A stretch of DNA of 64,000 nucleotides. Origin: an uncultured Bacteroidota bacterium (GTDB lineage: Bacteria > Bacteroidota > Bacteroidia > AKYH767-A > OLB10). Shown one piece after another: positions 6,901-45,767 of this stretch. The DNA lies in the NCBI GenBank assembly GCA_903847585.1, contig CAINEC010000193.1, forward strand, positions 52,507 to 116,506, written 5' to 3'. The notes beneath the pieces were generated by a model. The model made no database searches. It was not told the origin of the DNA and saw nothing but the letters and a program-made list of their open reading frames with translations. Position 1 is the stretch's first letter. Each line of letters begins with the position of its first letter. The position numbers and the translations under genes are program-made.

Positions 6901-7291
6901 TTGAATCGACAATTATTGAAACAATTGGAATCTGATGAGGAGAATTAATAAAATAGGTTCCTAGGTATTTACTATCTTTTCCATTCTCACCCTTCAAAAT
7001 TATTGTTAACGAAGATGTTTCTGTGATTGTAAAATTCAAGCCCGGATACGTTTCTCCTTTTTCATTTGAAACAATTATTCTTGCATTTGATGTATCGATT
7101 CCTGTAATTGAAATTGCAACTGGAGATTTATAAAATCCTGAAAGATGATTTATCTTAAAAGTTGTAGCCTTCTCCAGACTGTAAATCATTAAGGGCTTTT
7201 TAGCTGCCGTATCTTTGACATTGGGAATATCTTGTCCGAATGCAAATTGACAAATTATAACTAAAAGAAGCACGAGTCGTTGTTTCATCAT
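3974..7291 (-). CDS. Composite ORF: signal peptide, CotH-like kinase-fold domain, TM helix, lipobox-like hydrophobic segment, dual-specificity-phosphatase-like domain (HCxxGxxQSG), and a C-terminal LysM. It may be two genes fused in frame.
   Basis: CotH-like core (VLRTSGNDQHATR, YVNGIYYGIHNLREK, NIDSRGNVRFYKHKDGKWKWVVYDAD) is paralogous to 13271..15637. A TM helix plus RKRNNK lies at about 4970..5030, followed by LPIVLFLCMMAASC. VYIHCWNGWHQSGMLSALSLM aligns with the DSP P-loop VxVHCxAGxSRSxT. The C-terminal YVVKLGDTPYSISRRLGISITDLRKKNNSRLNVLHVGQELK is a LysM. Confidence 0.55.
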   Translation of the reverse strand: MMKQRLVLLLVIICQFAFGQDIPNVKDTAAKKPLMIYSLEKATTFKINHLSGFYKSPVAISITGIDTSNARIIVSNEKGETYPGLNFTITETSSLTIILKGENGKDSKYLGTYFINSPHQIPIVSIIVDSIEFFPPEGIYYGEVANREEKKKNKKAKTKVVGKAWDKKPISCFAQFYFYNELVDELALDVKTYGGMTLGWKEKSLQLSARDNKYERSKIKVKLFQNLPFRDYQHVVLRTSGNDQHATRIKDIAISQVAADIDLNTKDYRQVILYVNGIYYGIHNLREKVNGDYFKYRYDWKKGDFIELQGSGDESPEYNSLVSYIIESSDKPDFINLIKDSIDIENYFNYQIFETYITNIDSRGNVRFYKHKDGKWKWVVYDADQACAFAESNFIQNRCLPKERLWYNPSYTTTILEHLLKNDTLRNRFVTQYCYLNATYLNASYFGRSLDLRAEKIKGELPRHFNRRKNLYGEDMEAWTEKFNELKQYFSVRDTTLFKDLKITFSIDSIYRLTVGQNNNSFKGLTINNSVVHTNAINGYFFGSIPFELSALNSNHQYQFDGWSDGVKTSSRNVQLLSNLNLTANFSHLKASSKKDSLEIRKYYINNSKKEPLLFIELANKHTSDISLKGVKLYEDRNGLAVDLSNVVIPASSSIILTNNLNLFNSNIQSKNLKAVPAFESSSFLNDVQFNLIDTINHTWIDSLHYLVSDSMLILHAGYLIQKENGKIKVKNISISKLKQLKFNASVNKEKSGNSTIYMISIISGLLIILIVLFLIRKRNNKLTNLPIVLFLCMMAASCNGQVDNKAVKNSSDVDTIKTNCDKGNSVLKRYIDNSGKGDSSMLGTRNVRAVFPGLLYRGGGNNLDLKDSIPKYYVQNPLPYYAIDNLHEAGFNKIYYLYSKNFTQRYDSFKIDSLKSIGLDYDCRPVISDTFLMEFYADLLNRVNNKIDNEKEKVYIHCWNGWHQSGMLSALSLMQFCDFNSTQALKYWELCTENNYKGYNNVRTRIKEYKPLSGYDFTQSQKKILCPCMTELDTAHVVKPVVTPKDSLTLSSSEMMEKRHGIYVVKLGDTPYSISRRLGISITDLRKKNNSRLNVLHVGQELKY

Positions 7292-7308
7292 CAGCTTGAA
7301 TACACAAT

Positions 7309-8328
7309 TTAAATCACTTTGTAACTTAAGATTATTTCAACTTCGGGACCTCTCAATATTCCTATGTGAAGTTCGCCAAGTTTTAATTGCTCCATTGTTT
7401 TTGAAAAAGTGTTTCCAGATTTATTATCGAATAATATTAAATCTTGATTATTAAGCAACACAATGGTATCATTCGACAACTGTTCAATTTCGAAATAAAG
7501 AGTTGAGGCTGCTTTTATTATTTTATTATAAGGAGCGCTATTAATTTTGAAAGATACACTCTCCATATTAAAAACAGTAGGGAGACTAAATTTAGGGTCG
7601 GTTTGTGATTTAATCAGAATACTATCCACATTGAAGCCCATTTGAAAAACAGTACTGGTTTCAAAATACATCATCTTTTTAAATTGTTCACGAGTAACTT
7701 TTTTGGGTAAAAATTGATATTTACTGCTATCTGGAAAATGATTAAACAAAAACTCTTTAGGGTTTACATCAAACCAATAAACGTTATAAATCGATTTTGA
7801 TTTAGCCTTACCATTTATATTCTCAGCATATCCACTACCCCAAGTAGGATCCATTAAATGCCATTGATCATTATACTGGACAGCATTCCAAGCATGATTA
7901 ACTCCAGTGACTGGCATACCTAATTTAAACCCGTATCCTTTGGCAAAACCATCAATCGACACACAAGGAATATTTAATTCATCACATATGGCTTTAAACA
8001 AAAAACTATAACCTGCGCATACCGCTTTACGTGATTTAAAAACTGCTTCCGCACTAGGATCATTAAAAACATGAGAATTGAAGGCATCATCATCATAAGA
8101 GATATGATGAGCCACCCAAGAATAAACTAAGCGTGATTGATAATTTTTATTATTGGTGATTTTCTGAAAGTAATTCGCCAATTTACCAATTGACTCTTCA
8201 TTCTCTACAGGAACATTTTTTCCTAAGCTATCTAATTGAGCATAGCTGTAATTTTGAGCATAGCTTAATTGAAAACTAAAGCACAATAAAATTAAAATTA
8301 TTATTCGCATACTTATTTTCTGATACAT
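7309..8328 (-). CDS. Transglutaminase-like (TGc) cysteine-protease-fold protein, secreted.
   Basis: AVCAGYSFLF ... NHAWNAVQYNDQWHLMDPTWG gives the Cys-His-Asp triad context of the transglutaminase-like superfamily; signal peptide present. Confidence 0.65.
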   Translation of the reverse strand: MYQKISMRIIILILLCFSFQLSYAQNYSYAQLDSLGKNVPVENEESIGKLANYFQKITNNKNYQSRLVYSWVAHHISYDDDAFNSHVFNDPSAEAVFKSRKAVCAGYSFLFKAICDELNIPCVSIDGFAKGYGFKLGMPVTGVNHAWNAVQYNDQWHLMDPTWGSGYAENINGKAKSKSIYNVYWFDVNPKEFLFNHFPDSSKYQFLPKKVTREQFKKMMYFETSTVFQMGFNVDSILIKSQTDPKFSLPTVFNMESVSFKINSAPYNKIIKAASTLYFEIEQLSNDTIVLLNNQDLILFDNKSGNTFSKTMEQLKLGELHIGILRGPEVEIILSYKVI

Positions 8329-9109: not shown

Positions 9110-10873
9110 TTACTTACGCTTTATATATAACTCGATCTTATGACGTCGTTTGACGTATAGAATACACTCCTTCCCTGCCATTTTAAGCTCATTTTCTCGC
9201 TTTTTAGCTAATTTGAGATTATTAAACACTTCCACTTTCTTATACACTTTCAAATCGATGTTCATCTTAGGATATTTGACTACTGCACTTGTCGTATCTT
9301 TATCCTTGACTGGCTTTTTAACTTCAACAACAACAGGAACAACATCTTCTTCATTTGGAACATTTACAGGATTTGACTCAATCATTCCAAATCGATAGAG
9401 GTTACCATCTCTACAAGCAATATAAATACTCCCATTAAAGCAAACGGGAGTAGACTCAAAATAACCTTTTCGAGTAGCTATCTTTTGAAAACTAGCATTA
9501 GAACCTATTTTATAGATATTAATTGAACCGTATCCAGCCATTACTAATCTATTTTTTGCAAATACAGGAGTTGAAATAGAAGTGCAGACCTTTTCTCTAT
9601 AATGTAATTTCGGACAAGGGTATTTCGTTTCACCATCAGGACCTAATACAAGAGAATCCGATAATTCCTTATAACGAATAACATTAAGATAACCATCAAT
9701 TCCAGTGAATGCTGCAAGGAAAGGATCATTATTATTTCGATAACGATCGTTCACCGCACATGACCCAACAACACCACCAATCCAACTCGAATATTTCTTG
9801 TCTTCAGTAGGATAAAACCATTGTACACATTGATTTGGAGGCAGATTTGGATTCAACTTAAACACTCCACCATGACCTTTGATATATTGCTTTTCAACAG
9901 CAATTAATAAGCAATTATCATCTGTTACGACAGGAGTCCCATCCATATCAGAGCCGATATAAAAATCCCAATCAATAATTTTCTTTTTCAGATTATAACC
10001 AAATACATGTCCGCAACCCGAAGCAATATATAAGTGATCACCAAGTTTGGCAGGTGAAGCCTCGGTTACAAGATTACCACCATGCTGATGTGCATCTTCT
10101 TTCGAATACAGAAGCGTTTTATTATAAACTAACGGCGAGCAATATCCTTTATTTGATTTTACATTTTTTAAGGGATCGAAAGAAACCCAGTATCCATTTT
10201 CTAAACCAATATATCCAGTATCATTCACAAACAAGGCTGATGCATCCACATCATTGCTGTAACACTTCGTTCTTTGCATTGGCATTCTCCAAACTTCTTT
10301 TCCATTAGCACAGTGTAGCGCTCTAAAACTAGTAGCAGCAGAATCTTTTAATGAAACATGAACACCTTTACGACTACCTTGAAAAATATAAAATGGGTTA
10401 CCTTCTGAATGATTATTATTTCTCCAAATTGTACCAGTGCCTTTTAAAATATCTTCGTACTCATATTGCCATACAAGAGAAGCATCTGATAGTTTAATTT
10501 TCTTTAATGTATGATCAAAACTAGCTTGATAAATAAAATATTCACCTTGTTCTTTTGTAATGAGCGGTTGACCTGTCCACCCTGCTCCACTCCATACTTC
10601 TACTCCTGACTGAGCATTTACTATTGTTTCGCCTTTACCAAGTTTATATTTCCAAATTACATTAAGCGAATCAGAGCAAGAATCCCCATAAAATTTTCTC
10701 GTTTCATCACCTAAAAAAGTTCCAATAACAACTTGATAGGGGTCTTCTTTTTTCTTACTTGTAGCAGAATTATTATTCTTTATTTCGGATTGACTACATC
10801 CAAAGATTAGAATTAAACAACCCCAAACAATAATTTTAAAAAAGCTGCGTCTCATTTGATTAATGCGTTGCAA
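9110..10873 (-). CDS. Hypothetical lipoprotein, possibly a beta-propeller.
   Basis: Lipobox IFGCSQ; repeated Gly/Trp/Tyr-rich blades with a PQQ/BamB-like feel; a Lys-rich C-terminal tail; no specific family recognised. Confidence 0.35.
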   Translation of the reverse strand: MQRINQMRRSFFKIIVWGCLILIFGCSQSEIKNNNSATSKKKEDPYQVVIGTFLGDETRKFYGDSCSDSLNVIWKYKLGKGETIVNAQSGVEVWSGAGWTGQPLITKEQGEYFIYQASFDHTLKKIKLSDASLVWQYEYEDILKGTGTIWRNNNHSEGNPFYIFQGSRKGVHVSLKDSAATSFRALHCANGKEVWRMPMQRTKCYSNDVDASALFVNDTGYIGLENGYWVSFDPLKNVKSNKGYCSPLVYNKTLLYSKEDAHQHGGNLVTEASPAKLGDHLYIASGCGHVFGYNLKKKIIDWDFYIGSDMDGTPVVTDDNCLLIAVEKQYIKGHGGVFKLNPNLPPNQCVQWFYPTEDKKYSSWIGGVVGSCAVNDRYRNNNDPFLAAFTGIDGYLNVIRYKELSDSLVLGPDGETKYPCPKLHYREKVCTSISTPVFAKNRLVMAGYGSINIYKIGSNASFQKIATRKGYFESTPVCFNGSIYIACRDGNLYRFGMIESNPVNVPNEEDVVPVVVEVKKPVKDKDTTSAVVKYPKMNIDLKVYKKVEVFNNLKLAKKRENELKMAGKECILYVKRRHKIELYIKRK

Positions 10874-10922
10874 ATGTATTAATTCAATTTGAATTCGATT
10901 TAATTATAATTTTACCAAAGTC

Positions 10923-11909
10923 ATGAAAAACACAAAACGAGTTACCATCTTAATAACACTTATTTATTTCACGATTAGCTTAACGAGTTCTTTGTATGGT
11001 CAAATTGCAATTACGACAAATCAACTTTTTCAATCTAACAATAAAGTTTTAGTGGCAGCTCACAGAGGTAACTGGAAGGATTTTCCAGAGAATAGTATTC
11101 CCGCAGTACAATCCTGCATAGGTACGGGCATTGACATTATTGAAATAGATGTTCAACGCACGAAAGATGGAGCCTATGTTTTAATGCATGATGGAAGTAT
11201 AGACCGAACAACAAATGGCAAAGGGAAAGTAAGTGATTATACATTAAAACAACTTCAGCGATTTAAACTCAGAGGAAAGGGCGATACCATAACGGAATAT
11301 CGAATTCCGACACTAGACACGATTTGAAAAATCACAAAAGGTAAAATTATTCTCAATATTGATAAGAGCAGTGGTCGCTTCAACGAACTCACAAAACTGA
11401 TAGACTCACTTGAATGTAATCAGCATGTATTATTAAAAGGAAATGGCAAGGGAGAATACTTTAAAAGTTTAAATAATCAGGATACGAATAGCATTTACTA
11501 CATGCCTATTTTAAGCACTAAAAGCAATGTAGATTCTTTTATGCTTAGTTACCAAACACCATTATTTGAATTTCTATTAACTAATGACACCTCCATTTAT
11601 TCGAGTCTTGTGTTTCTAGATTCACTGAAAAAAATGAATGTAAAAATATGGTATAATGCTTTGTTTAATTCCATTTCTGGAGGTCATACAGAAAGTATAG
11701 ATGCAATTAATTCATGGGATTGGTTTATTGGTCATAATGCTTACGTAATACAAACAGATTATCCTTTTCACTTAGTAAAATATTTAAATCAATTAGGACT
11801 TCATGAGAGATTAACGAAAGAAGATCAATATGACTTAACCAAGTTGCCAGTTCGTGAAGCGATTGAAAAAAAAGAATTAATTGATTCCAGCGAAATAAAA
11901 AGTAAGTAA
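10923..11909 (+). pseudogene. Glycerophosphodiester phosphodiesterase (GDPD family) interrupted by one in-frame TGA at 11325..11327. The track splits it into 10923..11327 and 11502..11909.
   Basis: The N-terminal part carries the GDPD signature AAHRGNWKDFPENSIPAVQSCIGTGIDIIEIDVQRTKDGAYVLMHDGSIDRTTNGKG. The same frame continues stop-free after the TGA as KITKGKIILNIDKS... to the end of the domain. Confidence 0.6.
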
Positions 11910-35220: not shown

Positions 35221-38200
35221 TTACTCTAAGATAAGTCTTGTTTGAGTAACCAAGCCACTACCTTTTAGTGAAACGATATAAGTTCCTTTAACCAGGCTTT
35301 CAAGATTTAGTTCCTTTTGATTAAATCCTTCAATCGCATTAAGAACATAAGAGTCTACTAATCTACCAGACATATCGTAGATATTTAATGTGTAATCGCT
35401 GTTGTCAATTGATGTATAGGCAATTGTTACATTACCTCTTGTTGGGTTTGGATAAACCACTATACCTGATAAGTCAAATGCGCTTCCGTCACGTGCTGTA
35501 GGGCAAGCTGCGGTAGGATTTACAGATACCGATTTTGCTGTGCTTAATCCACATGCATTACCTGACTTAACTGTAATAGATTTTGATCCAGTAGCAGTAA
35601 ATCTCAAAGTAAGATTTGTTGTACCCTGTCCACTAACATAAGTAGTTCCTGATGTGGGGTAAGTCCAGGTATAAGATGTTGCACTAGTTACAGGTGCAAT
35701 TGAAAACACTTGAGGAACTGTTGTTCCTATACATAGTACAGAAGGGATAATTATTGCACTAGGAACAGATGGTACTACATTAATTTTCACTCCTCTTTCT
35801 GCACTAGAACCACAACCATTATTGGCCTTCACAAACAATGAATCGAATGTGGTTGTGTTAGCTGGATAAGTTACCGTAATTGATTGTGTAGGTGCTGAAA
35901 CAGTGAGAGAAGATACAGCCTGACCATTTAATAATGCCCCGACCTTTTTTGTTCTCCACGTATAAGACGTTGCATTTGTTACAGCGCTTGCAAAGGAATA
36001 AGTGAATGTTCCTCCACCACAAATTCCAGTAGTCTGTCCTGTGATAACTCCCGGAGTTGTTGGAGCTGCGGTATTTCTTGTAATTACTTTTGTACGAACA
36101 GTACTTAATCCCTTACAGTTTCCGCCATTTACCTTTAAAGTATCACCCACAAATCCCGTAGTGAAGGTAACAATAACAGAAGTATCCGTAGTCGTTAATG
36201 CGGTTGCTGATCCATTTACCAGCATTCCAGTTTTAGGTGTCCAAACATAATAATCAGCAGTAGCCACTTTTGCAATACTATACCTAATAGCATCACCAAT
36301 ACAAGCCGTTGCGGCTCCTGTAACTGTACCTGGCTGTGTCGGCTTAGCCGTTCTAACAATAATTGTTCTGATTGTTGAGTCCTTTCCGCATGATGAGGTT
36401 CCGACAACTTTAATAGCTCCTGTAACAGAAGTCGATGACCATGATGTAGTTATCGAATTAGTTCCTGCACCTGCAGTAATTGTAACACCTGTTGGAACTG
36501 TCCATACGTACGTTACTCCAGTTTGCGCTGCTACAGAATAAACAACTCCTGTTGCAGGTCGACAAATTGGAGAATTCCCTGAAATTGTACCAACTGTTAC
36601 GCTACCAGATGTAATTGCTACCGGTAAAGAAGAAGACGCATTATTACATACACCAGAAGCCACAACAGAAACATTTCCACTTAAAACTCCAATAGGCCAT
36701 GATGTAATAATCTGACTTGTTCCCTGTCCTGATAGTATTGTTACTCCCGTTGGAACTGTCCATGTATATACCACACCAGGCTGACTTGTTATAGAATATA
36801 CTAATTGTGATTGAGGTAAACAGAATGAAGTAGAACCAGATATAGACGATAACTGAACATTTGTTGAAACAGTTACCGCTTTAGAAGAACTTACCGAAAT
36901 ACAATTGTTGGCTAGTGTAACAGAAACATTTCCTGAAACAGCTGTTGCCCCCCAGGTGGTAGTAATTGAATTAGTTCCTTGTCCTGCAGTAATTGATACG
37001 CCTGTTGGAACTGTCCAATTATAACTAGCACCTGATTGCGCCGTTACACTATAAACGACTCCAGAAACGCCAGTACAATTTGAAGAAACGCCATTTATAA
37101 CAGGAGTAGAAAGTGAAGGAATAATTGAGATATTAACTGTATCAATAGCTGCAATACATGGACCGCCACCATCAGGATCATTAGTTGTTAAAAATAGTCT
37201 TGCAAATCCTGCTGCAATTTCTGATGCTGAAGGTGTATAAGTAATATTTAATGATGTGTTGCTTGGAGAATAAGTTCCAGTACCGCCACTCCAAGTTTGA
37301 CTTGTTGCAGCACCGCCAATACTTCCTGCAATTGATGAAGTTGCGTTGTAACAAATAGTTTTATCTACACCTGCATTAGCAGTTGGCGGATTAGTACATA
37401 CACTGCAATTTGTTACCGTAATTGCTGAGGTATCATTTGCTGTACAACCAGCTGCTGTCGTATAATAATAAATCAATGTATAAGTACCAGGACCTGCCGT
37501 TGAAGGATTGAAAGTGTTATTGCTAACTCCTGTACCAGCATAATTTCCACCTGTTGGTGAACCACCGGTTAAAGTAAATGGAGCTGCTGTATTACAAACA
37601 GGACTTAACGAAGCAAATGTTACAGTTGGTAAAGGATTAACTGTATAAACCTGTGATGCACTACGAGAACATCCTACTGTATAAGTCACCGTGTATGTTA
37701 TTGTCTGTGACCCAAAGGCAGGGTCGAAAAATCCATTTGATACGCCAACTCCTGAATACACCCCACCTGATGGTGAACCGCCAGAAAGTTGTTGCAATGG
37801 CGCATTATCGCAAATTGGGGAGAATGCACTTAGCGTTACATTTTGAGGAGTGATTACCGTAACAGAAGCGCTTCCACTTGCAGCCCCAACACATGTAGCA
37901 TCATTCATCGCGGTAAGTGTATATGTTGAAGTTGATGATGGACTAACTACTAAATTATAATTAGTAGTTGTTATACCTGTTACACTTGCTGAAGTTGTCC
38001 CGTTTGAATAAGTTAATGCAAATGGCGGAGTTCCAGTAAATGTAACTGGAATACTTACCGTACTTCCAGTACAAGCAGTATAAGACCCTGATGTTGTTGC
38101 AGTAGGGTTAGAGCATCTATCGGTGATGCATATACTAAAAGTACCTGCTACAGTTGAGTCGGTCCATACGCGTAAAATGTAATCTGCTTGAGGATTTAAC

Positions 38201-40002
38201 CCGGTAATCGTTTTGGTGTTATTTGTAACTGGATTCCAGCACGCTATTTCAAATCCTCCGCACTCGAATAACAACTGGGCTTTTACATTCGTAGCAGTAA
38301 TTGCATTAATCGTTAAATCAACATCGCTAAAACTTCCAGTATTAAATACAAACCAAACATCGCCTTTTAGTAAAGAAGCATCACAACTTGATGCATCAGT
38401 ATTTCTAGTCGCATAATTATTCAGAAATGTTCTGGCATTTGTAGCACATGATAATGGTGGATTAACACTTAGTCTGATTGCATTTGCACAGTTATCATTA
38501 CTAGGAGCAACCGCACACATAGTTGTTTCATAGATACACAAATTCATAGTACCTGTTGAAAATGGAATGTATGTCCAAACTCTCACATAATAGGTTTGAC
38601 CGGCCACATATTCATTCTGACACATTGAAATCTCTGGCATTCCTCCATTTTGATCATCACCGCATTTAAACTGGTATCCTGTTCCACCCGGACAACCTGT
38701 CCATACTTCCATTACCCAATCGTTATTAGTTCCTGCTTGAGTAGTTAAAACCAATTTCTTTCCATTAGCAGGTGCAACAAACTTAAACCACTTATCATTG
38801 GTTGCCTGATTTCCATTGATATCGGAGCAGAAAGAGGTAGGACCATTTATAGAAACCCCAGTTGATACAGTAGTATAACTACAAGTGGCTAATGAAGATG
38901 CAACTGAAAGCAATGGTGCTGTTGAACAATCCTCACCGATACCACCAGTACTGAAATTAGATGGTCCAATTTTCAAACTATTATTTCCAGTACCACAACT
39001 TTTCTGAACGTAAAAACTATAAGAAGTTAACGATGATAGTCCTGTTATTGCTGCAGTCGTTGAAGATGTATTGATAGTTGTTCCTGTTCCTGGAGTAAAA
39101 CCAACAGGACCATATTCAATAGTAAAGGTTCCACCTGTTACTGGATTTGTCCAAGATAAAGTTGCTCCATTAGTTGTAATTTGCGTAGCTGATAAGTTAG
39201 TTGGTGAAGGGCAAGAAGTCGGAGCATATCTAAAATTTAAACCTTGAGCAGGTAATAATGTAGATGAAATTCCGCATGTAGAGGTGTTTGCTGTACCATT
39301 AGCAGATGTAGCCCAAGTATTTGTACCAGTAACAACCGATCTGTTTTTAATATTTGTAGGATATGTATTATTTGCACCTCTTAAACCAACCTGGTATGAT
39401 CCGGCTGTATATGTTCCTTGAGTAAATTTATAAATAACGTCAATGGCATTTGATGTCTCATTCAACACGATTTGAAAATTCATAGCGGTAGTATATGTTG
39501 TACCACTTTGTGCTTGAGGCTTAAAATTTTTGTACTGAATCACAAACTTTCTGTTTGGTGTAGTTCCCAGCGTTTGATAACTGATAGAACCTGTCTGAGA
39601 GGCATTTCCTGAAAAGAAATATGCATTCAAATTTCCTCCTAAAGCTGCAATAGCACCTGCGTAGGATGTTGATGCCGATATCGGAGTATAACTCGTTGTA
39701 GATGGACTTGTAGCTCCAAAAGTCATATATCCATTTGTACTAACTACACATCCCGAATAAGACACACCGTCATATACAAATGAAAAAGGAATCGTTCCTG
39801 CTGCGAGGGTATAAGTAAGATCATCGAGCGATCCCGAGCCTGTTGTTGCGGTTGCTGTTGCTAGAGTAGTTGCTCCAGTTAACTCTGTGTACGTTCCGTT
39901 ACTTTGAACAAAATCGTAGAGATTAACTTGTGCTGTACCCAAATGATAATTTCCAATAATAATTAGAAAAATCATCAGTAGTTTCAATAATAATTTACGC
40001 AT
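35221..40002 (-). CDS. Giant secreted cell-surface protein with FN3 and tandem Ig-like repeats and a T9SS type-A C-terminal sorting domain.
   Basis: Signal peptide; an FN3-like segment (LSWTNPVTGGTFTIEYGPVG); repeated about 85-aa units (YxWTVPTGVxITAGQGTNSITTxW...); C-terminal YPNPTRGNVTI...IYDMSGRLV...GTYIVSL...TQTRLILE (Por_Secre_tail). Confidence 0.6.
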   Translation of the reverse strand: MRKLLLKLLMIFLIIIGNYHLGTAQVNLYDFVQSNGTYTELTGATTLATATATTGSGSLDDLTYTLAAGTIPFSFVYDGVSYSGCVVSTNGYMTFGATSPSTTSYTPISASTSYAGAIAALGGNLNAYFFSGNASQTGSISYQTLGTTPNRKFVIQYKNFKPQAQSGTTYTTAMNFQIVLNETSNAIDVIYKFTQGTYTAGSYQVGLRGANNTYPTNIKNRSVVTGTNTWATSANGTANTSTCGISSTLLPAQGLNFRYAPTSCPSPTNLSATQITTNGATLSWTNPVTGGTFTIEYGPVGFTPGTGTTINTSSTTAAITGLSSLTSYSFYVQKSCGTGNNSLKIGPSNFSTGGIGEDCSTAPLLSVASSLATCSYTTVSTGVSINGPTSFCSDINGNQATNDKWFKFVAPANGKKLVLTTQAGTNNDWVMEVWTGCPGGTGYQFKCGDDQNGGMPEISMCQNEYVAGQTYYVRVWTYIPFSTGTMNLCIYETTMCAVAPSNDNCANAIRLSVNPPLSCATNARTFLNNYATRNTDASSCDASLLKGDVWFVFNTGSFSDVDLTINAITATNVKAQLLFECGGFEIACWNPVTNNTKTITGLNPQADYILRVWTDSTVAGTFSICITDRCSNPTATTSGSYTACTGSTVSIPVTFTGTPPFALTYSNGTTSASVTGITTTNYNLVVSPSSTSTYTLTAMNDATCVGAASGSASVTVITPQNVTLSAFSPICDNAPLQQLSGGSPSGGVYSGVGVSNGFFDPAFGSQTITYTVTYTVGCSRSASQVYTVNPLPTVTFASLSPVCNTAAPFTLTGGSPTGGNYAGTGVSNNTFNPSTAGPGTYTLIYYYTTAAGCTANDTSAITVTNCSVCTNPPTANAGVDKTICYNATSSIAGSIGGAATSQTWSGGTGTYSPSNTSLNITYTPSASEIAAGFARLFLTTNDPDGGGPCIAAIDTVNISIIPSLSTPVINGVSSNCTGVSGVVYSVTAQSGASYNWTVPTGVSITAGQGTNSITTTWGATAVSGNVSVTLANNCISVSSSKAVTVSTNVQLSSISGSTSFCLPQSQLVYSITSQPGVVYTWTVPTGVTILSGQGTSQIITSWPIGVLSGNVSVVASGVCNNASSSLPVAITSGSVTVGTISGNSPICRPATGVVYSVAAQTGVTYVWTVPTGVTITAGAGTNSITTSWSSTSVTGAIKVVGTSSCGKDSTIRTIIVRTAKPTQPGTVTGAATACIGDAIRYSIAKVATADYYVWTPKTGMLVNGSATALTTTDTSVIVTFTTGFVGDTLKVNGGNCKGLSTVRTKVITRNTAAPTTPGVITGQTTGICGGGTFTYSFASAVTNATSYTWRTKKVGALLNGQAVSSLTVSAPTQSITVTYPANTTTFDSLFVKANNGCGSSAERGVKINVVPSVPSAIIIPSVLCIGTTVPQVFSIAPVTSATSYTWTYPTSGTTYVSGQGTTNLTLRFTATGSKSITVKSGNACGLSTAKSVSVNPTAACPTARDGSAFDLSGIVVYPNPTRGNVTIAYTSIDNSDYTLNIYDMSGRLVDSYVLNAIEGFNQKELNLESLVKGTYIVSLKGSGLVTQTRLILE
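35560..37070 (-). repeat. Intragenic tandem array of about 6-7 diverged Ig-like repeat units (about 255 bp each).
   Basis: Protein-level repeats within residues about 980..1480 of the 1593-aa ORF; coordinates are approximate. Confidence 0.45.
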
Positions 40003-40075
40003 AATAAGTCGTGCTTGGATGGTTTGTGTATGATAATTTAATGTCGGATTCTAACGAGTAATTTTGATAAAAGTT

Positions 40076-43000
40076 CTAATTACTATTTATTGATTGTTTT
40101 GCTGTGTTTTTACTTCGTTGCGATGAGTTTGGTGAAGCAAAGTTATAGTTAATTCCTCCCAGTGGCAATAACACGGGGTTTTTACTCCATGTCTCCAAAG
40201 AATTACGATGATTGACTACCAGATAATAACTTCCTCCAGAGTAAACACTTGGGAATGAAACCGAGGCATTTCCTGCTACATCCAACACAGTTCTTCTAGT
40301 GGTGATGTAATTATATGGGAATGCACTTGAATATAAAGAAACACTTATTGTATCTGCGGTTAAAGGTGCGTTTATCGCGTCAGAAACAGGTATCAATGAA
40401 TTATTTAGTGCATAGAACCCCTCAATTAAAAGTTTAATATTTACAACGCATGATGCAGTTGGAACGCCAACCCCAAAAGGATTAACTGTGGAAGTAAAAC
40501 AACCTTCAGCGTTTGTTATTTTAATTGCCCCTGTAGTAGCTCCACTAGGCACAATCGCATGAATTGCTAAATCATTCACCACGTTAAATTGTGAAGATGA
40601 AATGTTATTGAATTGAATATTATTTACTCCAGTGAAATTATAACCAGAGATCCCAACATCAGTTCCCACAGGCCCTGTTGAAGGTGAAAAGCTTGTGATA
40701 ACTGGAGCGGCAACAGCTGTAATGGTGCTTGATGCTGATTGCTGACAACCCGTACCTAAACCATAGGTATAGGTAACTGTAAATGTCCCAGGCCCTGATA
40801 AATTTCCGAAGAAACTGCCTGACTGAACATAAGAACCACTGTAAACTCCTCCGGATGGACTTCCTTGATTTAAAACTTTCGAAGTGTTAGTACAAACAGT
40901 ACCCAGATTAGCCAAAGTAACAACTGGAACCGCTGAAACATTAACAATAGCACTTCCGGAAACTGTTCCACTACAATAGGGGCCGCTTACACTCGTTAAT
41001 GTATAATTTTTAGAAGATGTAGGAGCTAAATTGATGTAGTAAGGATTTGTGGATGTAGTAACTGAAGTATTCGTTGTGCCATCTGTATAGATAAACGTCC
41101 AAGGCGAATATCCTGTTAGATCAACTTTTGCTTGAACGATAGCTCCGGAACAAATTGCAAAAGACCCGCTTATTGTTGCAGTTGGTGCATCACACTGATC
41201 AGAAATACAAATTTTAAATGTTCCCGGAGTTCCTGTTGCTGGAGTCCATACTCTTAAAACATAATCCGCTTGCGGATTTAAACCATTCAACGCAAATGTT
41301 CCATTTGGATTAGCATAACATTGAATTTCAAAACCGCCGCATTCAAATATCAAAGCAGCCTTCAATCCCACGGCAGTTAAAGGTGTTATTGACAAATCTA
41401 AATCACCATAATTACCGGTATTAAATTTAAACCATACATCGGTGTATCCTGCGGCCAAGGCATCACATGTCTGAGCTGCAGCTGTTGAAACCGTTGCATT
41501 AACATTGGTAAATGTTTGTCCGCTTGCAGGGCAAGATTGAGGCGGTGTTATGGTAATATAGGTTGATGTAGCACAGTCATCATTTGCGGGAGGCAATGGA
41601 CAAGCTGTAGTCGTGTAAGCAGCCACACTACAGGTCCCGCTTACTCCTCGCGAGTAAGTCCAAATCCGAACATAATAAGTGGCACCTGGCGTGTACTCGT
41701 TTTGACATAATGAAATTTCTGGCATAAATCCATTAACATCATCTGCGCAACGATAAGCGTTAATATTTGAACCTGGACAATTAGTCCAAACTTCCATTAC
41801 CCAATCGTTGATTGTTCCAGCTTGTGTGGTAACGACTATCTTAGAATTATTGGTAGAGGGAGCAATGAACTTAAACCAAACATCATCGTCACCAACCTTT
41901 CCAATAGAATCAGAACAAATATTGTTTGGGGCATTTAAAGAAACCCCAGAAGCAACTGAAGAGTAAGAAATGGTAGACAGTGAATTCTGCAATGATAAGG
42001 AGGCTGCAGTTAAACAGTCTTCTCCGTCTGATCCCGTAGTAAATGTAAAACTTTGAATCGAGCTTGAATCCGTCAAACTACAAAATTGTCGCACGTAAAT
42101 CTGATAGGTTGTTTGAGCTGTTAATCCCGATAAATTAATGGTATTCGTTGTCACTTCTGACCTAGTACCGTTTCCTAATGTAAACCCATTAAGTCCATAT
42201 TCGACTTTATATTTTAAGGCTGAAACAGCGGGATTCCAACCAATTATTGCTGACGTTTTAGTCACATATGTAGCAGAAAAACCAGAAGGAGGAGGGCAAG
42301 AAGGAGGAGCAAATCGAAAAACAATATTATTCGGATTTAACGTGCTTCCTACATTACAATTAGCATTATTTGCAGCACCTGCAACTGAATTAAGCCAACT
42401 AGTGTGTGTCCCTGTAACTACACTCCTATTTAATACATTAGTTGGGAATGTATTATTAACACCTCTCAACCCTACTTGCATTTTGTTACCTGCAGCACTT
42501 GTAGAAAATCCTGTTCCTACATTTCCATAACAATACTCTATCGCATTTGATGTTTCATATAGTTTAACCTGAAAGTTTAAATAGTTAACAAGCGTAGTTG
42601 CGCTAGACCATGGACGCATAAACTTCCATTGCACAACAAAAACTCTGTTAGGTGAAGAACCTAAAACCTGATACCTTATTTCCGAATTTTTTGTTGTATC
42701 AACTGCATTATAAAATCCGTTCAAGTCATTGGCCATTGGCGCAAGTACTCCAGCAAATGCAGAATTATCTGACAAGGGAAGATTCAATGAAACATTCGGC
42801 GATAATGTACCAAATGTGATGAATCCATTTGAACTTACATACATCCCCGTATATGAATTGTTTTCAAACTTAAATGAGAAAGGTATAGTGCCAGCCGGAA
42901 GATTATAAACTGCCTTATCCAAAGAAGGAATATTACCAGTACTCGCTGTAGTTTTACCTAGTAAGGTCCCGCCAGTAATTAGACTGAATGTACTTGTTGA

Positions 43001-43105
43001 GCTGGTAAATTGATAAGTTGATAATGTTTGGGAAAAACCATTTACCGCCAAAAAACAAATCAGAAACGATAAACAAAAAAAGTTTTTGTTGTAGAAATTA
43101 AACAT
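40076..43105 (-). CDS. Large secreted surface protein, paralog of 35221..40002 in its N-terminal 600 aa, with an IPT/TIG-like domain. No recognisable T9SS type-A C-terminal domain.
   Basis: Shared N-terminal architecture (TIPFSF...SNGFITFG, FN3, GEDC.TA, DDVWFKF, DWVMEVW, MPEIS.CQNEY, TYYVRIWTY); an IPT-like PVITSFSPSTGPVGTDVGISGYNF; the C-terminus lacks the YPNP ... K(L/I)(I/V) pattern. Confidence 0.5.
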   Translation of the reverse strand: MFNFYNKNFFCLSFLICFLAVNGFSQTLSTYQFTSSTSTFSLITGGTLLGKTTASTGNIPSLDKAVYNLPAGTIPFSFKFENNSYTGMYVSSNGFITFGTLSPNVSLNLPLSDNSAFAGVLAPMANDLNGFYNAVDTTKNSEIRYQVLGSSPNRVFVVQWKFMRPWSSATTLVNYLNFQVKLYETSNAIEYCYGNVGTGFSTSAAGNKMQVGLRGVNNTFPTNVLNRSVVTGTHTSWLNSVAGAANNANCNVGSTLNPNNIVFRFAPPSCPPPSGFSATYVTKTSAIIGWNPAVSALKYKVEYGLNGFTLGNGTRSEVTTNTINLSGLTAQTTYQIYVRQFCSLTDSSSIQSFTFTTGSDGEDCLTAASLSLQNSLSTISYSSVASGVSLNAPNNICSDSIGKVGDDDVWFKFIAPSTNNSKIVVTTQAGTINDWVMEVWTNCPGSNINAYRCADDVNGFMPEISLCQNEYTPGATYYVRIWTYSRGVSGTCSVAAYTTTACPLPPANDDCATSTYITITPPQSCPASGQTFTNVNATVSTAAAQTCDALAAGYTDVWFKFNTGNYGDLDLSITPLTAVGLKAALIFECGGFEIQCYANPNGTFALNGLNPQADYVLRVWTPATGTPGTFKICISDQCDAPTATISGSFAICSGAIVQAKVDLTGYSPWTFIYTDGTTNTSVTTSTNPYYINLAPTSSKNYTLTSVSGPYCSGTVSGSAIVNVSAVPVVTLANLGTVCTNTSKVLNQGSPSGGVYSGSYVQSGSFFGNLSGPGTFTVTYTYGLGTGCQQSASSTITAVAAPVITSFSPSTGPVGTDVGISGYNFTGVNNIQFNNISSSQFNVVNDLAIHAIVPSGATTGAIKITNAEGCFTSTVNPFGVGVPTASCVVNIKLLIEGFYALNNSLIPVSDAINAPLTADTISVSLYSSAFPYNYITTRRTVLDVAGNASVSFPSVYSGGSYYLVVNHRNSLETWSKNPVLLPLGGINYNFASPNSSQRSKNTAKQSINSN

Positions 43106-43296
43106 AAGTCGATTATTAATTAGATTCTTTACAAACGAAAGAAATTTAAACTTGATTATAACTGACTAATTTACATAAAACATGCGACTTAAAACAAATT
43201 TTTAAGCACATTTTCAATCATATGAATCTAAAAAATGACACTACTCTATTTGTTTTGACAATTTTTAATACATTTGCACCTCTTAAAACCAGAATT

Positions 43297-43370
<74 letters not shown>

Positions 43371-43442
43371 CAAAGATTAGGTCCTTTTTACACAGACCTT
43401 AAAAAAAAGAAGATTTTTCTTGCATCCTGTTTTTTCGCGCCC

Positions 43443-43450
43443 TATATTTG
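43443..43450 (+). promoter_or_regulatory. Putative Bacteroidetes-type -7 promoter element TAtaTTTG for the mini-ORF/xrtF unit.
   Basis: Perfect TAnnTTTG match about 30 nt upstream of the ATG at 43480, with a weak TTG about 20 nt further upstream. Confidence 0.35.
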
Positions 43451-43479
43451 TTAGATAAAGCAAGAAAAATTATTTAACT

Positions 43480-43659
43480 ATGAAAAATAAAATCCTAATT
43501 GCGTTACCTTTAATCGGATTAATGGTATTAGCCTCTTCTCCTCTATTTGCGCAAAGTTGCAACCCTAATGTACCTATCGATGGTGGTTTAAGTGCTTTGT
43601 TAGTAGCAGGTGCTGGTTATGGCATCAAAAAAATTAACGATAAAAGAAAAGAGAAGTAA
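43480..43659 (+). CDS. 59-aa mini-protein: signal peptide, about 10-aa mature segment, C-terminal TM helix and Lys/Arg-rich tail. Candidate exosortase-F substrate. It is shorter than 60 aa, so it was absent from the ORF track.
   Basis: Translated by hand: MKNKILIALPLIGLMVLASSPLFAQSCNPNVPIDGGLSALLVAGAGYGIKKINDKRKEK. It has its own promoter-like element, is followed by a strong terminator, and sits immediately 5' of xrtF. Confidence 0.4.
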   Translation: MKNKILIALPLIGLMVLASSPLFAQSCNPNVPIDGGLSALLVAGAGYGIKKINDKRKEK

Positions 43660-43682
43660 TTCTTAAAAACAAAATAAAAAAA

Positions 43683-43710
43683 GGTTAGCATTTGCTAACC
43701 TTTTTTTATT
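43683..43710 (+). terminator. Rho-independent terminator (possibly bidirectional) between the mini-ORF and xrtF.
   Basis: ggttagca-ttt-tgctaacc perfect 8-bp stem followed by T7; an A-run precedes it. Confidence 0.7.
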
Positions 43711-43720
43711 TTTACCCTGT

Positions 43721-44251
43721 ATGAAAGTCGGTATTTTAAATTCTCAATACAAAATCGTAGTTGTATTTATTATTAAAGCTATACTGCTTTATGTAGCATG
43801 GTTCATCTTTAACGACTTTATCATTGCTCAATCAGGAGTTAACGATTGGCTTAATCATCGTGTAGCATATGATGCAAGCGTTTTTTTAAAGTTGTTGGGG
43901 TATACTACTTCTATCGAACCTGGCAACCATCAATTTTTAATTGATATCAATACCAAGCGAATGGTTGGTGTTGGTAATCCTTGTAATGGATTAGAACTAT
44001 TTGCACTATTTGCTGGATTTGTCCTTTGCTTTCCCGGCGGTACAATAAAGAAATTATGGTTTATTCCACTTGGAATTTTCATAATCCACATATCAAACTT
44101 TATTAGAGCAGCTTCACTTGCACTAATACAGTATTACAATCCAGCATATTTAGAATTTAATCATCATTATACTTTTGTAATAATTGTTTACGGAATAATA
44201 TTCGGACTTTGGATCGTTTGGGTAAATCGCTTAGCTACTTTAAAAAAATGA
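43721..44251 (+). CDS. xrtF: Exosortase family protein, XrtF-like.
   Basis: About 176-aa polytopic membrane protein with the exosortase-type Cys motif (GNPCNGLE) and Asn/Arg motif (ISNFIRAAS). Its size and pairing with a downstream small membrane protein match the XrtF system of Bacteroidota. ATGA start/stop overlap with the next gene. Confidence 0.6.
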   Translation: MKVGILNSQYKIVVVFIIKAILLYVAWFIFNDFIIAQSGVNDWLNHRVAYDASVFLKLLGYTTSIEPGNHQFLIDINTKRMVGVGNPCNGLELFALFAGFVLCFPGGTIKKLWFIPLGIFIIHISNFIRAASLALIQYYNPAYLEFNHHYTFVIIVYGIIFGLWIVWVNRLATLKK

Positions 44252-44736
44252 TTCGTTTAACGAAACCCTTCAACAATATACTTGCGGCTTTATCTTTTTT
44301 AGTGCTATTGTTTTTTGGATGGAAACGAGAAGATAAATTATTAGTGATTAGTCAAAAAGGATTTCATTTTTTAAATAAATATCCTAAAACGGAAATAACA
44401 AATTACACAAATGAGGTCAGTAATCTCGTTAGCTTTCAATTATCGCCTAAACTGCAATCATCCATTTTTTTTAGCATCATTTATATTGCACTATGCTACC
44501 TAGTATTAGTAATGCATACTCGCGATAAATACTTAGGAAAGATATTGGTGGCAACCTATTTAATTTACATGGGACTAAGTTTTGTATTTCTGACCCTGTA
44601 CAATTTTAAAGTCGATTATCGCTTAAGTGCTGGACTAGCTCATTACCTAGAAGATCTTTTTCTTTCTCCATTAATTTTAATGGCCTTTATAACAATTTAC
44701 CATTTGAAAGAAAAATTACAAGAAAAAAAGGATTAA
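44248..44736 (+). CDS. Exosortase F system-associated membrane protein (putative).
   Basis: About 163-aa, 4-TM protein, translationally coupled (ATGA) to xrtF; the start is taken at MIRLTKPF. Confidence 0.5.
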   Translation: MIRLTKPFNNILAALSFLVLLFFGWKREDKLLVISQKGFHFLNKYPKTEITNYTNEVSNLVSFQLSPKLQSSIFFSIIYIALCYLVLVMHTRDKYLGKILVATYLIYMGLSFVFLTLYNFKVDYRLSAGLAHYLEDLFLSPLILMAFITIYHLKEKLQEKKD

Positions 44737-45767
44737 TTACTTCTAGCCTTTTTGATAAAAATATTGTTAAGTATCGCCCAGAAATATTGAAAATCTGTTT
44801 TTATAGGTGCCTTCTCATATTCTTTTAAGTACTTCAATTCTGAATTAATAATCTCTTCTAAAGTCTTAGGCATATCTACATAAAAAGGTGGAAGCAAACC
44901 TGGCTTGGAATCTTTTCTTTTTTCCTGCAACTCTTTAGTATAAAGAGAATAATAATGACGACTTAAAGGACGTACACCGACTATTTTCAAATCACCTTTT
45001 AAAAGGTTATAAATCATTGGTAATTCATCCAACCAGCATTTTCTTAGAAATGCTCCCCATCGAGTAATTCTAAAGTCATCGGCGAACTTGCCGCCTTCAG
45101 TTAAATTATTAGTCTCGTAGATATATTCCTGAAGGTATTCAGCATAGGGATACATGGTGCGGAACTTATAAACGCTAATTATTTTCCCATCTTTACCTAC
45201 TCTTCTCATCGCGAATAATGGTCCGTAGGAAGGGTTTAAATCATATACTGGAGCCTTTTCTTTCTGACCAACAAAATAAAGTTTATTGTTAATTTCCTTG
45301 ATTTCTAAAATCCTGAAACCACATGAACACAATCGCCCTAAAGCTTCTGCTTTCGACATTGCGCGGTTTCTTCCGTCGGTAAGGAAAAAATATAATTTCT
45401 TTAAGAATGGAAGTTTAGGCCAAACTCTCTTAAATACAAAATCTCCGAGTTGGTACATTTGAGATACAACTGGCGGAAATTTACTTTTAATACGGAGTAT
45501 TCTTTGTTCGTGTGTTTCAACGCATCCAATATAAATTCCTCCAACAGGCAATTTTTCATTGATTGCTTCTTGAAATTTATTTACAAAGCGAATATCATTG
45601 ATCTTTTTCAGATTAACGACAGCATCAATAGTATGTTGGTCAATATTAAGAATATTAAAAGTAGTAGTTGTCATCATAACTTTTGATTTGTCAGATGCAA
45701 CATTAACATACTTTTCAAGTAGTGTTATTAGCTCAGGAGCCGTGTCTTTTAATATCTCGGTATTCAT
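44733..45767 (-). CDS. Sugar transferase (Bac_transf / polyprenyl-phosphate hexose-1-phosphate transferase C-terminal domain) with a soluble N-terminal domain.
   Basis: FAMRRVGKDGKIISVYKFRTM ... DDFRITRWGAFLRKCWLDELPMIYNLLKGDLKIVGVRPL matches the WbaP/EpsB catalytic domain; no N-terminal TM helices are evident. Confidence 0.65.
   Translation of the reverse strand: MNTEILKDTAPELITLLEKYVNVASDKSKVMMTTTTFNILNIDQHTIDAVVNLKKINDIRFVNKFQEAINEKLPVGGIYIGCVETHEQRILRIKSKFPPVVSQMYQLGDFVFKRVWPKLPFLKKLYFFLTDGRNRAMSKAEALGRLCSCGFRILEIKEINNKLYFVGQKEKAPVYDLNPSYGPLFAMRRVGKDGKIISVYKFRTMYPYAEYLQEYIYETNNLTEGGKFADDFRITRWGAFLRKCWLDELPMIYNLLKGDLKIVGVRPLSRHYYSLYTKELQEKRKDSKPGLLPPFYVDMPKTLEEIINSELKYLKEYEKAPIKTDFQYFWAILNNIFIKKARSN

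Follow-up and report, generated by a model that had tools for sequence, protein, structure and literature searches.

In a window of 64 kb, the whole stretch of DNA analysed here, from an uncultured Bacteroidota bacterium, we find three consecutive plus-strand genes for membrane or exported proteins that probably constitute an XrtX/PID-CTERM protein-sorting cassette. From their sequences, the parts are predicted to be a tiny exported protein that is almost pure sorting tag, an exosortase that would cut the tag, and a partner membrane protein. The locus is a real system of a known kind and not a new XrtF substrate. Three consecutive NCBIfam models (NF046080-82) cover PID-CTERM, XrtX and the XrtX-associated protein, Pfam has an entry for the same tag (PF28310 PID_CTERM), and the names given by NCBI to homologs of 77-81% identity already fit these labels. 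All the sequence features on which the original prediction had been built were located at their expected positions, and a comparison of loci showed that the order of mini-ORF, hairpin, xrtX and partner gene is kept across genomes. The XrtX/PID-CTERM system has been curated in silico only: our literature search returned no paper on PID-CTERM or XrtX, with matches to 'exosortase X' consisting of incidental words only, and no experiment on cleavage of any PID-CTERM protein.

The central gene (xrtX, 43721..44251, plus strand) encodes a protein of 176 aa, predicted to be a multi-pass membrane Cys protease or transpeptidase. It scores 181.5 bits against the exosortase X model NF046081 (cutoff 170), its best exosortase subfamily, and also matches the Pfam family Exosortase_EpsH. 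In an alignment of 21 homologous sequences reaching down to 37% identity, residues C88, N89, N126, R129 and H148 are invariant; C88, R129 and H148 align as the Cys, Arg and His expected of the exosortase/archaeosortase superfamily, for which a catalytic triad and the logic of tripartite signals have been set out by Haft (10.1101/2023.06.07.544157). A sequence search of the PDB with an XrtX profile retrieved no relative, and tblastn of XrtX against plasmids gave no match.

The original prediction had assigned this enzyme to XrtF, its neighbour to the XrtF-associated proteins, and the mini-protein to the role of the previously undefined XrtF substrate. That assignment has some basis, in that XrtF (TIGR04128) ranks second among the models with 86.5 bits, homologs bear the name XrtF in older JGI and UniRef entries, and the targets of XrtF are still unknown (PMC12188702). 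The XrtF system of Flavobacterium johnsoniae (Fjoh_1448/1449) also comes from the same phylum and likewise pairs a small exosortase with a small multi-pass protein behind it; deletion of either Fjoh_1448 or Fjoh_1449 abolishes biofilm formation and surface colonisation (PMC10936215). However, the window enzyme falls below the XrtF cutoff of 90 and scores 95 bits higher with XrtX, current NCBI names of the homologs read 'exosortase X', the neighbouring protein matches no XrtF-associated model at E <= 1, and the signal of the mini-protein is already curated as PID-CTERM. The model scores refute the XrtF reading at the family level, and we regard it as very improbable. The argument that no substrate had been defined holds for true XrtF but is inapplicable here, because the enzyme is XrtX, which has PID-CTERM, a tag already present in NCBIfam and Pfam.

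Directly behind xrtX, and overlapping its stop codon with its own start (ATGA), lies the gene for a divergent XrtX-associated membrane protein of 162 aa (44248..44736, plus strand), with about four hydrophobic segments that correspond to some four TM helices. Its score against NF046082 (29.8 bits) is below the curated cutoff of 75, and we file it as a divergent homolog. The alignment runs over the full length (residues 10-153 against profile positions 4-146 of 147), and, by jackhmmer, at least 73 of 81 loci have a homolog of it as the ORF immediately behind xrtX. The NF046082 scores of its relatives are graded, from 171 bits in Hymenobacter through 78, 68.5 and 43 to 18 bits. It does not qualify for TIGR04127, the exosortase F system-associated protein, its best match being the XrtX-associated model. 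A Bac_transf sugar transferase adjoins the cassette. This linkage is kept in the close clade only (16 loci) and is therefore treated as synteny by descent; we rejected it as evidence for a polysaccharide role.

The first gene (43480..43659, plus strand) encodes the predicted XrtX substrate, a mini-protein of 59 aa that scores 45.6 bits against NF046080 PID_CTERM (cutoff 26, E = 4e-12); public contigs that share this gene order encode an identical protein, to which PF28310 PID_CTERM has been assigned. Inspection and alignment resolve the protein into an n-region (MKNK), a hydrophobic core, the sequence LFA-QSC, the segment NPNV-PIDGG, the helix LSALLVAGAGYGI and the tail KKINDKRKEK, with PIDGG, helix and tail forming a tripartite layout that ends the chain. 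The sorting domain itself spans residues 31-55 (43570..43644, plus strand), aligned to profile positions 1-25 of 25, and comprises the PIDGG motif, the Gly/Ala-rich TM helix, GYGIKK and the start of the basic tail. The sorting layout of signal, motif, TM and basic tail that had been proposed for this ORF therefore matches a curated domain, and the PID-CTERM match likewise supports the proposal that the ORF encodes a dedicated sorting-signal protein for the exosortase next to it. As read from the sequence, the whole predicted mature 'cargo' before the motif is the 7-aa segment QSCNPNV (43552..43572, plus strand), for which the clade consensus is Q[SNK][CS]NPN[VI]. The gene is real and under strong purifying selection: compared with locus L003, the codons of residues 25-49 carry 13 synonymous and 0 nonsynonymous changes, and synonymous changes make up 0.75-0.77 of the differing codons in this region versus 0.34 in the signal peptide.

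The signal peptide (residues 1-24; 43480..43551, plus strand) is, judging from the alignment, of the signal peptidase I type, with predicted cleavage between LFA and Q at a conserved Ala-Gln site. The signal made up of MKNK, hydrophobic core and LFA-Q is conserved; A24 and Q25 are kept in at least 90% of aligned mini-protein homologs, and 166 of 196 PID-CTERM family members have [AS]Q ahead of the motif, a pattern reminiscent of the Bacteroidetes Q-rule (PMC5837995). The ORF had earlier been credited with a Sec/lipoprotein-type signal peptide, of which the signal peptide stands and the lipoprotein type does not. A lipoprotein, processed by signal peptidase II and acylated on Cys27, would account for the Cys found three residues after the hydrophobic core (LFAQSC), but many close homologs have Ser in place of this Cys (AQKSNPNV, AQKSDPNV) and distant ones lack it, while the Ala-Gln pair is what is conserved. 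AQS is moreover a poor lipobox, and the +1 Cys, invariant in lipoproteins, is not kept across the family; we hold acylation of Cys27 to be highly unlikely.

The absence of cargo extends to the family at large. Among 1.84 billion representative proteins, 2,970 related clusters were found at E <= 1e-3, and 49 homolog clusters were found for the mini-protein itself. Nearly all of the best 150 of the 2,970 clusters are 56-125 aa long and therefore lack a cargo domain, making PID-CTERM a family almost wholly of mini-proteins. The median length of the sampled members is 70.5 aa (n=196), and the segment before the motif ranges from 5 to 50 aa (median 11) and is rich in Pro, Asp and Gly. Across these 196 members the P, D, G and G of the motif are 100% conserved, and G12, Y15, G16 and K18 are conserved at 97-98%. 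Candidate cargo carriers were rejected on inspection. For example, P0171 (1612 aa) is a eukaryote-type thrombospondin-repeat protein that matches only through 'CPVDGGLS', and the inspected members of 100-125 aa owe their length to over-extended N-termini upstream of the signal peptide or, in P0173, to a read-through C-terminus.

Linkage between mini-ORF and enzyme is widespread. Of 80 XrtX loci in other genomes, 50 have a mini-ORF directly upstream of xrtX and co-directional with it; these range from the window's clade to Hymenobacter, Pontibacter and Cytophagales, and the arrangement is found in 20/20 loci of the window's own clade. The check put forward with the original prediction, a conserved ORF with signal peptide, TM and basic tail 5' of the enzyme, thus gave a positive answer, with the difference that the enzymes are XrtX and not XrtF (all 10 sampled enzymes are XrtX by NCBIfam). 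In the window, xrtX starts 61 nt downstream of the mini-ORF, giving the co-occurrence with XrtX that is expected of a PID-CTERM protein. Co-transcription is not essential, since 31 of the 80 XrtX loci have no PID-CTERM ORF within 6 kb, and in Botryobacter the mini-genes, three within 12 kb, are on the opposite strand.

Upstream of the mini-ORF are two putative promoter boxes, in keeping with the Bacteroidota promoter consensus TTG-N19-TAnnTTTG. The -7 element TATATTTG (43443..43450, plus strand) is an exact match to TAnnTTTG, and about 20 nt further upstream lies a -33-like element, CTTGCAT (43419..43425, plus strand), that is invariant in the window and 6 relatives while its flanks vary. TAnnTTTG is not enriched in the 64-kb window (69 matches versus 95 expected), and because a match alone is not above chance, the promoter claim rests on cross-genome conservation. 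The CTTGCAT and TAnATTTG boxes are conserved among the window's relatives, and in the clade the mini-ORF ATG is preceded, at a distance of 28-46 nt, by a conserved -7 box that reads exactly TAnnTTTG or has the variant form TAnnATTG. A scan for sigma-70 promoters gave nothing at the mini-ORF; the sigma-70 consensus is not relevant to Bacteroidota promoters. The earlier proposal that the mini-ORF has a TAnnTTTG element of its own is supported by this conservation.

A terminator-like hairpin followed by a T-run separates the mini-ORF from xrtX (43671..43712, plus strand), as had also been predicted. The core stem GGTTAGC/GCTAACC at 43683-43700 precedes a T7 run, and the extended stem covers 43671-43712. 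Its folding energy of -21.8 kcal/mol corresponds to a z of -6.8, and 0/200 shuffles fold as well. Hairpin and T-run are present in 35/49 loci compared with 5.4% of random windows, including the window and 20/20 clade loci, where they lie +14 to +46 behind the stop codon, and the stem shows compensatory changes among loci. A G+C hairpin, a U-run and a conserved position together make this a predicted intrinsic (rho-independent) terminator. The terminator scan called the hairpin on the minus strand only, missing it on the plus strand because an A/T extension absorbs the T-run. Obligatory read-through into xrtX, as first proposed, is unproven: TATTTTTA (TAnnTTTA) overlaps the T-tract at 43707-43714, in sister loci the xrtX ATG follows a promoter-like TAnnTT(A/T)G at a distance of 4-25 nt, and other genomes have mini-genes that are unlinked to xrtX or run on the opposite strand.

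A short ORF followed by a terminator directly upstream of a regulated gene is also the arrangement of a leader-peptide attenuator, in which case the ORF and hairpin would serve only to regulate xrtX and the peptide would have no function. The hairpin does give a weak Rfam match to Thr_leader, although on the opposite strand and at 30 bits against a gathering score of 55; in the Rfam scan all matches on the hairpin are below threshold and a tRNA alone passes. Against attenuation, the amino-acid sequence including the export signal is under strong purifying selection, the stop codon comes 23 nt before the stem with no alternative anti-terminator pairing evident, mini-genes in some other genomes are unlinked to xrtX or on the opposite strand, and one subfamily has no hairpin, its gap to xrtX being only 9-16 nt. 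There is little chance, in our judgement, that the locus is an attenuator of this kind.

Set against characterised and curated systems, the cassette resembles the XrtX/PID-CTERM/XrtX-associated set (NF046081, NF046080, NF046082; PF28310), in that enzyme and mini-protein pass the curated cutoffs and the gene order and three-gene adjacency are those of Hymenobacter and Pontibacter. It departs from this set in its very divergent partner and in the unusually short, conserved QSCNPNV, where Hymenobacter PID-CTERM proteins have Pro/Gly-rich linkers of 20-45 aa. XrtJ/PExPT-CTERM (TIGR04200) is similar as a dedicated exosortase with a mini-protein target, described by a whole-protein model of 57 positions, but belongs to another exosortase subfamily and has a PExPT rather than a PID motif; residues 12-57 of the window mini-protein give a weak alignment with this model (E = 0.1, 12.4 bits against a cutoff of 40). 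XrtA/EpsH with PEP-CTERM shares the enzyme superfamily (Exosortase_EpsH), the tripartite signal and, through the adjoining Bac_transf gene of the close clade, an association with polysaccharide genes. PEP-CTERM, however, occurs on many proteins per genome with real cargo domains, unlike the single cargo-less protein of the window. Archaeosortase A/PGF-CTERM and sortase A/LPXTG offer a parallel in proposed Cys/Arg/His chemistry, in which the C-terminal helix is removed and a new moiety is attached (10.1101/2023.06.07.544157). The ArtA substrates differ from the mini-protein in being large S-layer glycoproteins that become lipid-anchored, and sortase A differs from XrtX in its unrelated fold and its cell-wall acceptor.

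We propose the following mechanism as the best explanation of the locus. First, the 59-aa precursor would be transcribed from its own TTG/TAnnTTTG promoter, with most transcripts ending at the hairpin and a minority reaching xrtX and the partner gene, yielding much substrate and little enzyme. Second, Sec would export the precursor, signal peptidase I would remove the signal peptide after LFA, and the new N-terminal Gln would probably be cyclised to pyroglutamate. Third, the Gly/Ala-rich helix and the Lys/Arg tail would anchor the remaining 35 residues in the inner membrane, with PIDGG positioned on its periplasmic side. Lastly, XrtX, assisted by the 4-TM partner, would recognise PID and the helix, cut at or near the motif through Cys88/Arg129/His148 and, on the model of sortase A and archaeosortase A, pass the N-terminal peptide of ~10 residues to an acceptor in the envelope.

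Some observations do not sit easily with this mechanism. Conservation of the TM segment greatly exceeds that of typical sorting signals and would be equally compatible with a permanent subunit; the 64 kb of the window contain a single PID-CTERM ORF, whereas classical sorting signals occur many times per genome; and the score of the partner stays below its curated cutoff. The mini-protein could instead escape cleavage and serve the complex of XrtX and its partner as a small, stable membrane subunit or as a regulator, anchored by its C-terminal helix and with PIDGG as a docking element. Besides the unusual conservation of the helix and GYGxKK, small-xxx-small packing motifs (AGAGYG), a mini-protein with no cargo to deliver and only one to three mini-gene copies per locus would agree with such a subunit. 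On the other hand, the motif, TM and basic cluster stand at the extreme C-terminus, which is the exact architecture of a sorting signal (10.1101/2023.06.07.544157), and PID-CTERM is curated as a sorting domain. An own promoter and terminator imply a large excess of mini-protein over enzyme, odd for a stoichiometric subunit, and 31/80 XrtX loci have no mini-protein gene nearby. On balance we find a permanent subunit unlikely.

Returning to sorting by XrtX, we tentatively raise a more specific possibility, to which we give a fairly low probability: PID-CTERM mini-proteins would not serve to carry cargo, and the pGlu-capped peptide itself (here ~10 residues, pGlu-SCNPNVPID) may be the product, transferred in bulk by XrtX onto an envelope lipid or polysaccharide, with the promoter-terminator arrangement supplying the large excess over enzyme. 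If this is true, XrtF targets may be similar mini-ORFs missed by gene callers.

For annotation, the locus should be labelled XrtX/PID-CTERM and not XrtF, and with this label the claim that an orphan exosortase has gained its first substrate falls. What remains useful is a substrate family that consists of sorting tag and little else, behind a conserved promoter of its own and with a conserved terminator ahead of the enzyme gene. A substrate this small is amenable to mass spectrometry and has homologs in culturable Hymenobacter and Pontibacter, and it would therefore offer a convenient handle on whether exosortases are transpeptidases, and on what their targets are attached to.

The mini-ORF, promoter element, hairpin, exosortase and partner gene of the original prediction were all located at the positions it proposed. 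A 59-aa ORF (43480–43659, plus strand) is followed on the same strand by a long A/T-extended hairpin (43671–43712), a 176-aa exosortase ORF (43721–44251) and a 162-aa partner ORF (44248–44736) whose ATG overlaps the TGA of the exosortase gene. Against the curated cutoffs of NCBIfam release 20, the enzyme scored 181.5 bits on NF046081 ‘exosortase X’ (cutoff 170), and the mini-protein 45.6 bits on NF046080 ‘PID-CTERM protein-sorting domain’ (cutoff 26, residues 31–55 aligned). The proposed XrtF label does not hold, as the enzyme reaches only 86.5 bits on TIGR04128 (XrtF, cutoff 90) and the partner matched no XrtF-associated NCBIfam model at E ≤ 1. Exosortase_EpsH was the sole Pfam match of the enzyme, PF28310 ‘PID_CTERM’ is recorded for an identical mini-protein on public contigs, and NCBI names homologs of 77–81% identity ‘exosortase X’ and ‘PID-CTERM protein-sorting domain-containing protein’. 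Taken together, the NCBIfam scores, the PF28310 record and the NCBI names assign the enzyme to XrtX, a sister of XrtF whose sorting signal is already curated. At the level of sequence families, the system is therefore the catalogued XrtX/PID-CTERM cassette and not an orphan XrtF, while the inference from raw sequence of a dedicated sorting substrate beside an exosortase was sound, as the PID-CTERM match indicates.

Older JGI and UniRef entries name the homologs XrtF. XrtX proteins cross-match the XrtF model, which accounts for the abundance of such legacy names; exosortases from three homologous loci (L010, L034, L036) also exceed the XrtF cutoff (92–95 bits versus 90), yet score 196–255 on XrtX. 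Enzymes sampled from ten loci, with or without an adjoining mini-gene, were all XrtX by NCBIfam (10/10). Residues C88, N89, N126, R129 and H148 are invariant in an alignment of 21 XrtX proteins whose identity falls as low as 37%, a pattern in keeping with the Cys/Arg/His triad that exosortases and archaeosortases are proposed to use (10.1101/2023.06.07.544157); a sequence search found no solved structure of any XrtX relative. The partner has about four hydrophobic segments. Its match to NF046082 ‘XrtX-associated membrane protein’ is full-length but reaches 29.8 bits, short of the cutoff of 75. In at least 73 of 81 loci a homolog of the partner is encoded immediately after XrtX, and the NF046082 scores of such homologs are graded, from 171 bits (Hymenobacter) to 18. 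We treat the partner as a divergent homolog of this membrane protein, below the curated cutoff.

Scanning one genome per species by means of an XrtX alignment gave 255 encoding stretches. Among the best 80 of these, a PID-CTERM ORF of 59–99 aa, detected with a custom HMM of the PIDGG-to-end segment, lies directly upstream on the same strand in 50, and none occurs within 6 kb in 31. Every one of the 20 loci in the window's clade (L001–L019, L037) has it upstream, it also occurs there in Hymenobacter, Pontibacter and Cytophagales loci, and divergent upstream mini-ORFs are PID_CTERM by NCBIfam at 40–52 bits. The Botryobacter ruber locus (L022) carries three PID-CTERM mini-genes (7085–7399, 7844–8104 and 10813–11073, all minus strand) downstream of the XrtX partner and on the opposite strand; two of the three are 80-aa near-duplicates. 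Adjacency is thus common, not obligatory, and substrate genes can be multi-copy and separately transcribed. The same HMM found no second PID-CTERM ORF within the 64-kb window. Four loci of an XrtX subclade (L020, L032, L044, L064) have directly upstream, instead of the mini-ORF, a conserved protein of ~1,489 aa ending in KQLTGQKD(E/D)D.

Codon comparison among 18 clade members, each of 59 aa, indicates that the mini-ORF is a real, constrained gene. Across residues 25–49, which span the mature segment, PID motif and helix, 75–77% of codon differences are synonymous, versus 34% in the signal peptide; the window and clade member L003 differ there by 13 synonymous and no nonsynonymous changes. Extreme conservation of the helix favours the main rival reading, in which the mini-protein is an uncleaved small subunit, whereas its tripartite layout favours a substrate. 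Searching 1.84 billion representative proteins with a profile returned 2,970 clusters at E ≤ 1e-3 (335 at E ≤ 1e-10), and nearly all of the best 150 of the 2,970 measure 56–125 aa. Longer entries that we inspected were over-extended start calls, with one read-through C-terminus (P0173); an apparent long PID-CTERM protein was rejected as a false match on a eukaryote-type thrombospondin-repeat protein. In 196 family members the median length is 70.5 aa and the tag consensus is P-[IVL]-D-G-G-[LIV]-S-x-L-[LIV]-[AV]-A-G-x-G-Y-G-x-K-K, 97–100% conserved at P, D, GG, G12, Y15, G16 and K18. [AS]Q precedes the motif in 166 of the 196, and the segment from Gln to motif, rich in Pro, Asp and Gly, is 5–50 residues long (median 11). 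PID-CTERM proteins are essentially a signal peptide plus a sorting tag, without a cargo domain, for which the XrtJ system offers a precedent: its PExPT-CTERM target, TIGR04200, is modelled as a whole protein in only 57 positions. The proposed lipoprotein-type (AQSC) reading of the signal peptide fails: many close homologs have Ser in place of Cys27 and distant ones lack it, while Ala24|Gln25 is at least 90% conserved. In Bacteroidetes, the new N-terminal Gln of signal peptidase I substrates is cyclised to pyroglutamate (PMC5837995, PMC10653852), and this Q-rule probably applies to Ala24|Gln25.

The proposed TAnnTTTG promoter element of the mini-ORF is present as TATATTTG at 43443–43450. When the window is aligned with six relatives, CTTGCAT and TAnATTTG do not vary but their flanks do, and across the clade the −7 box, as exact TAnnTTTG or a TAnnATTG variant, lies 28–46 nt upstream of the ATG. 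TAnnTTTG by itself is not enriched in the window (69 matches versus 95 expected), so the promoter claim rests on conservation. The predicted terminator is likewise kept: the hairpin (core stem GGTTAGC/GCTAACC, 43683–43700, then T7) folds at −21.8 kcal/mol versus −5.4 ± 2.4 for shuffles (z = −6.8), and a hairpin with T-run lies 14–46 nt past the mini-ORF stop in the window and in every one of the 20 clade loci. A strict no-bulge scan detected it in 35 of 49 loci versus 5.4% of random 155-nt windows, several negatives holding bulged hairpins with T-runs. Since its position is kept and its stems change compensatorily (GGTTAGC, GGTCAGC, GGCCGGC, GGTCGGC), the terminator is a selected feature. This promoter and terminator arrangement again favours a substrate over an uncleaved subunit, and much substrate with little enzyme is a reasonable reading of it. 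A need for read-through to express xrtX is nevertheless unproven, because candidate promoter motifs precede its ATG and one subfamily (CWPPPC-PIDGG) is hairpin-free. In the window TATTTTTA (43707–43714) overlaps the T-tract. Sister loci (L005–L010, L012, L013, L016–L018) carry TAnnTT(A/T)G 4–25 nt before the xrtX ATG, downstream of the terminator (instances include TAATTTAG, TACTTTAG, TATATTAG and TATTTTTG); it may act as a weak promoter from which xrtX mRNA starts with a very short leader or none. The subfamily (L036, L038, L048, L059, L063, L070, L072) has poly-Pro and a CW(E/P)P(G/P)PC-like two-Cys motif just before PIDGG. Five of its loci (L036, L038, L059, L070, L072) have no hairpin and a 9–16 nt gap to xrtX, an operon arrangement different from the window's; the exceptions are L063 (1 nt gap) and L048 (138 nt, with hairpin).

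A tRNA-Met(CAT) gene (43297–43371, plus strand) lies 108 nt upstream of the mini-ORF, with its own TAnnTTTG box, TACATTTG at 43269–43276, ~21 nt upstream. It begins with G1 and so is probably elongator Met or Ile2-type rather than initiator; between it and the mini-ORF promoter there is no T-run terminator. Further upstream, two paralogous genes on the minus strand encode large surface proteins with fn3, GBD_T9SS_assoc and Ig-like domains. In one (35221–40050) these are joined by six copies of the PKD_6 repeat and, for type IX secretion, a Por_Secre_tail C-terminal domain; no C-terminal domain was recognised in the other (40076–43105). The window therefore encodes T9SS and exosortase, two unrelated systems of C-terminal sorting, next to each other. 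Convergent with the partner gene, and overlapping its stop by 4 nt, is a Bac_transf sugar-phosphate transferase gene (44733–45767, minus strand), whose product has an unusual N-terminal extension of ~180 aa; this linkage is kept in the close clade only (16 loci).

We postulate that the mini-protein would be exported by Sec, cleaved at LFA|Q with subsequent pyroglutamate formation, and retained by its C-terminal helix. XrtX would then recognise and cleave it at PID, and the ~10-residue peptide may be passed to some acceptor by transfer. A literature search for PID-CTERM or XrtX found no paper. The targets of true XrtF are described as ‘not yet known’ (PMC12188702); in Flavobacterium johnsoniae, biofilms no longer form once xrtF or its partner is deleted (PMC10936215). 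The cassette is chiefly valuable as a minimal model of exosortase chemistry, one well suited to mass spectrometry.
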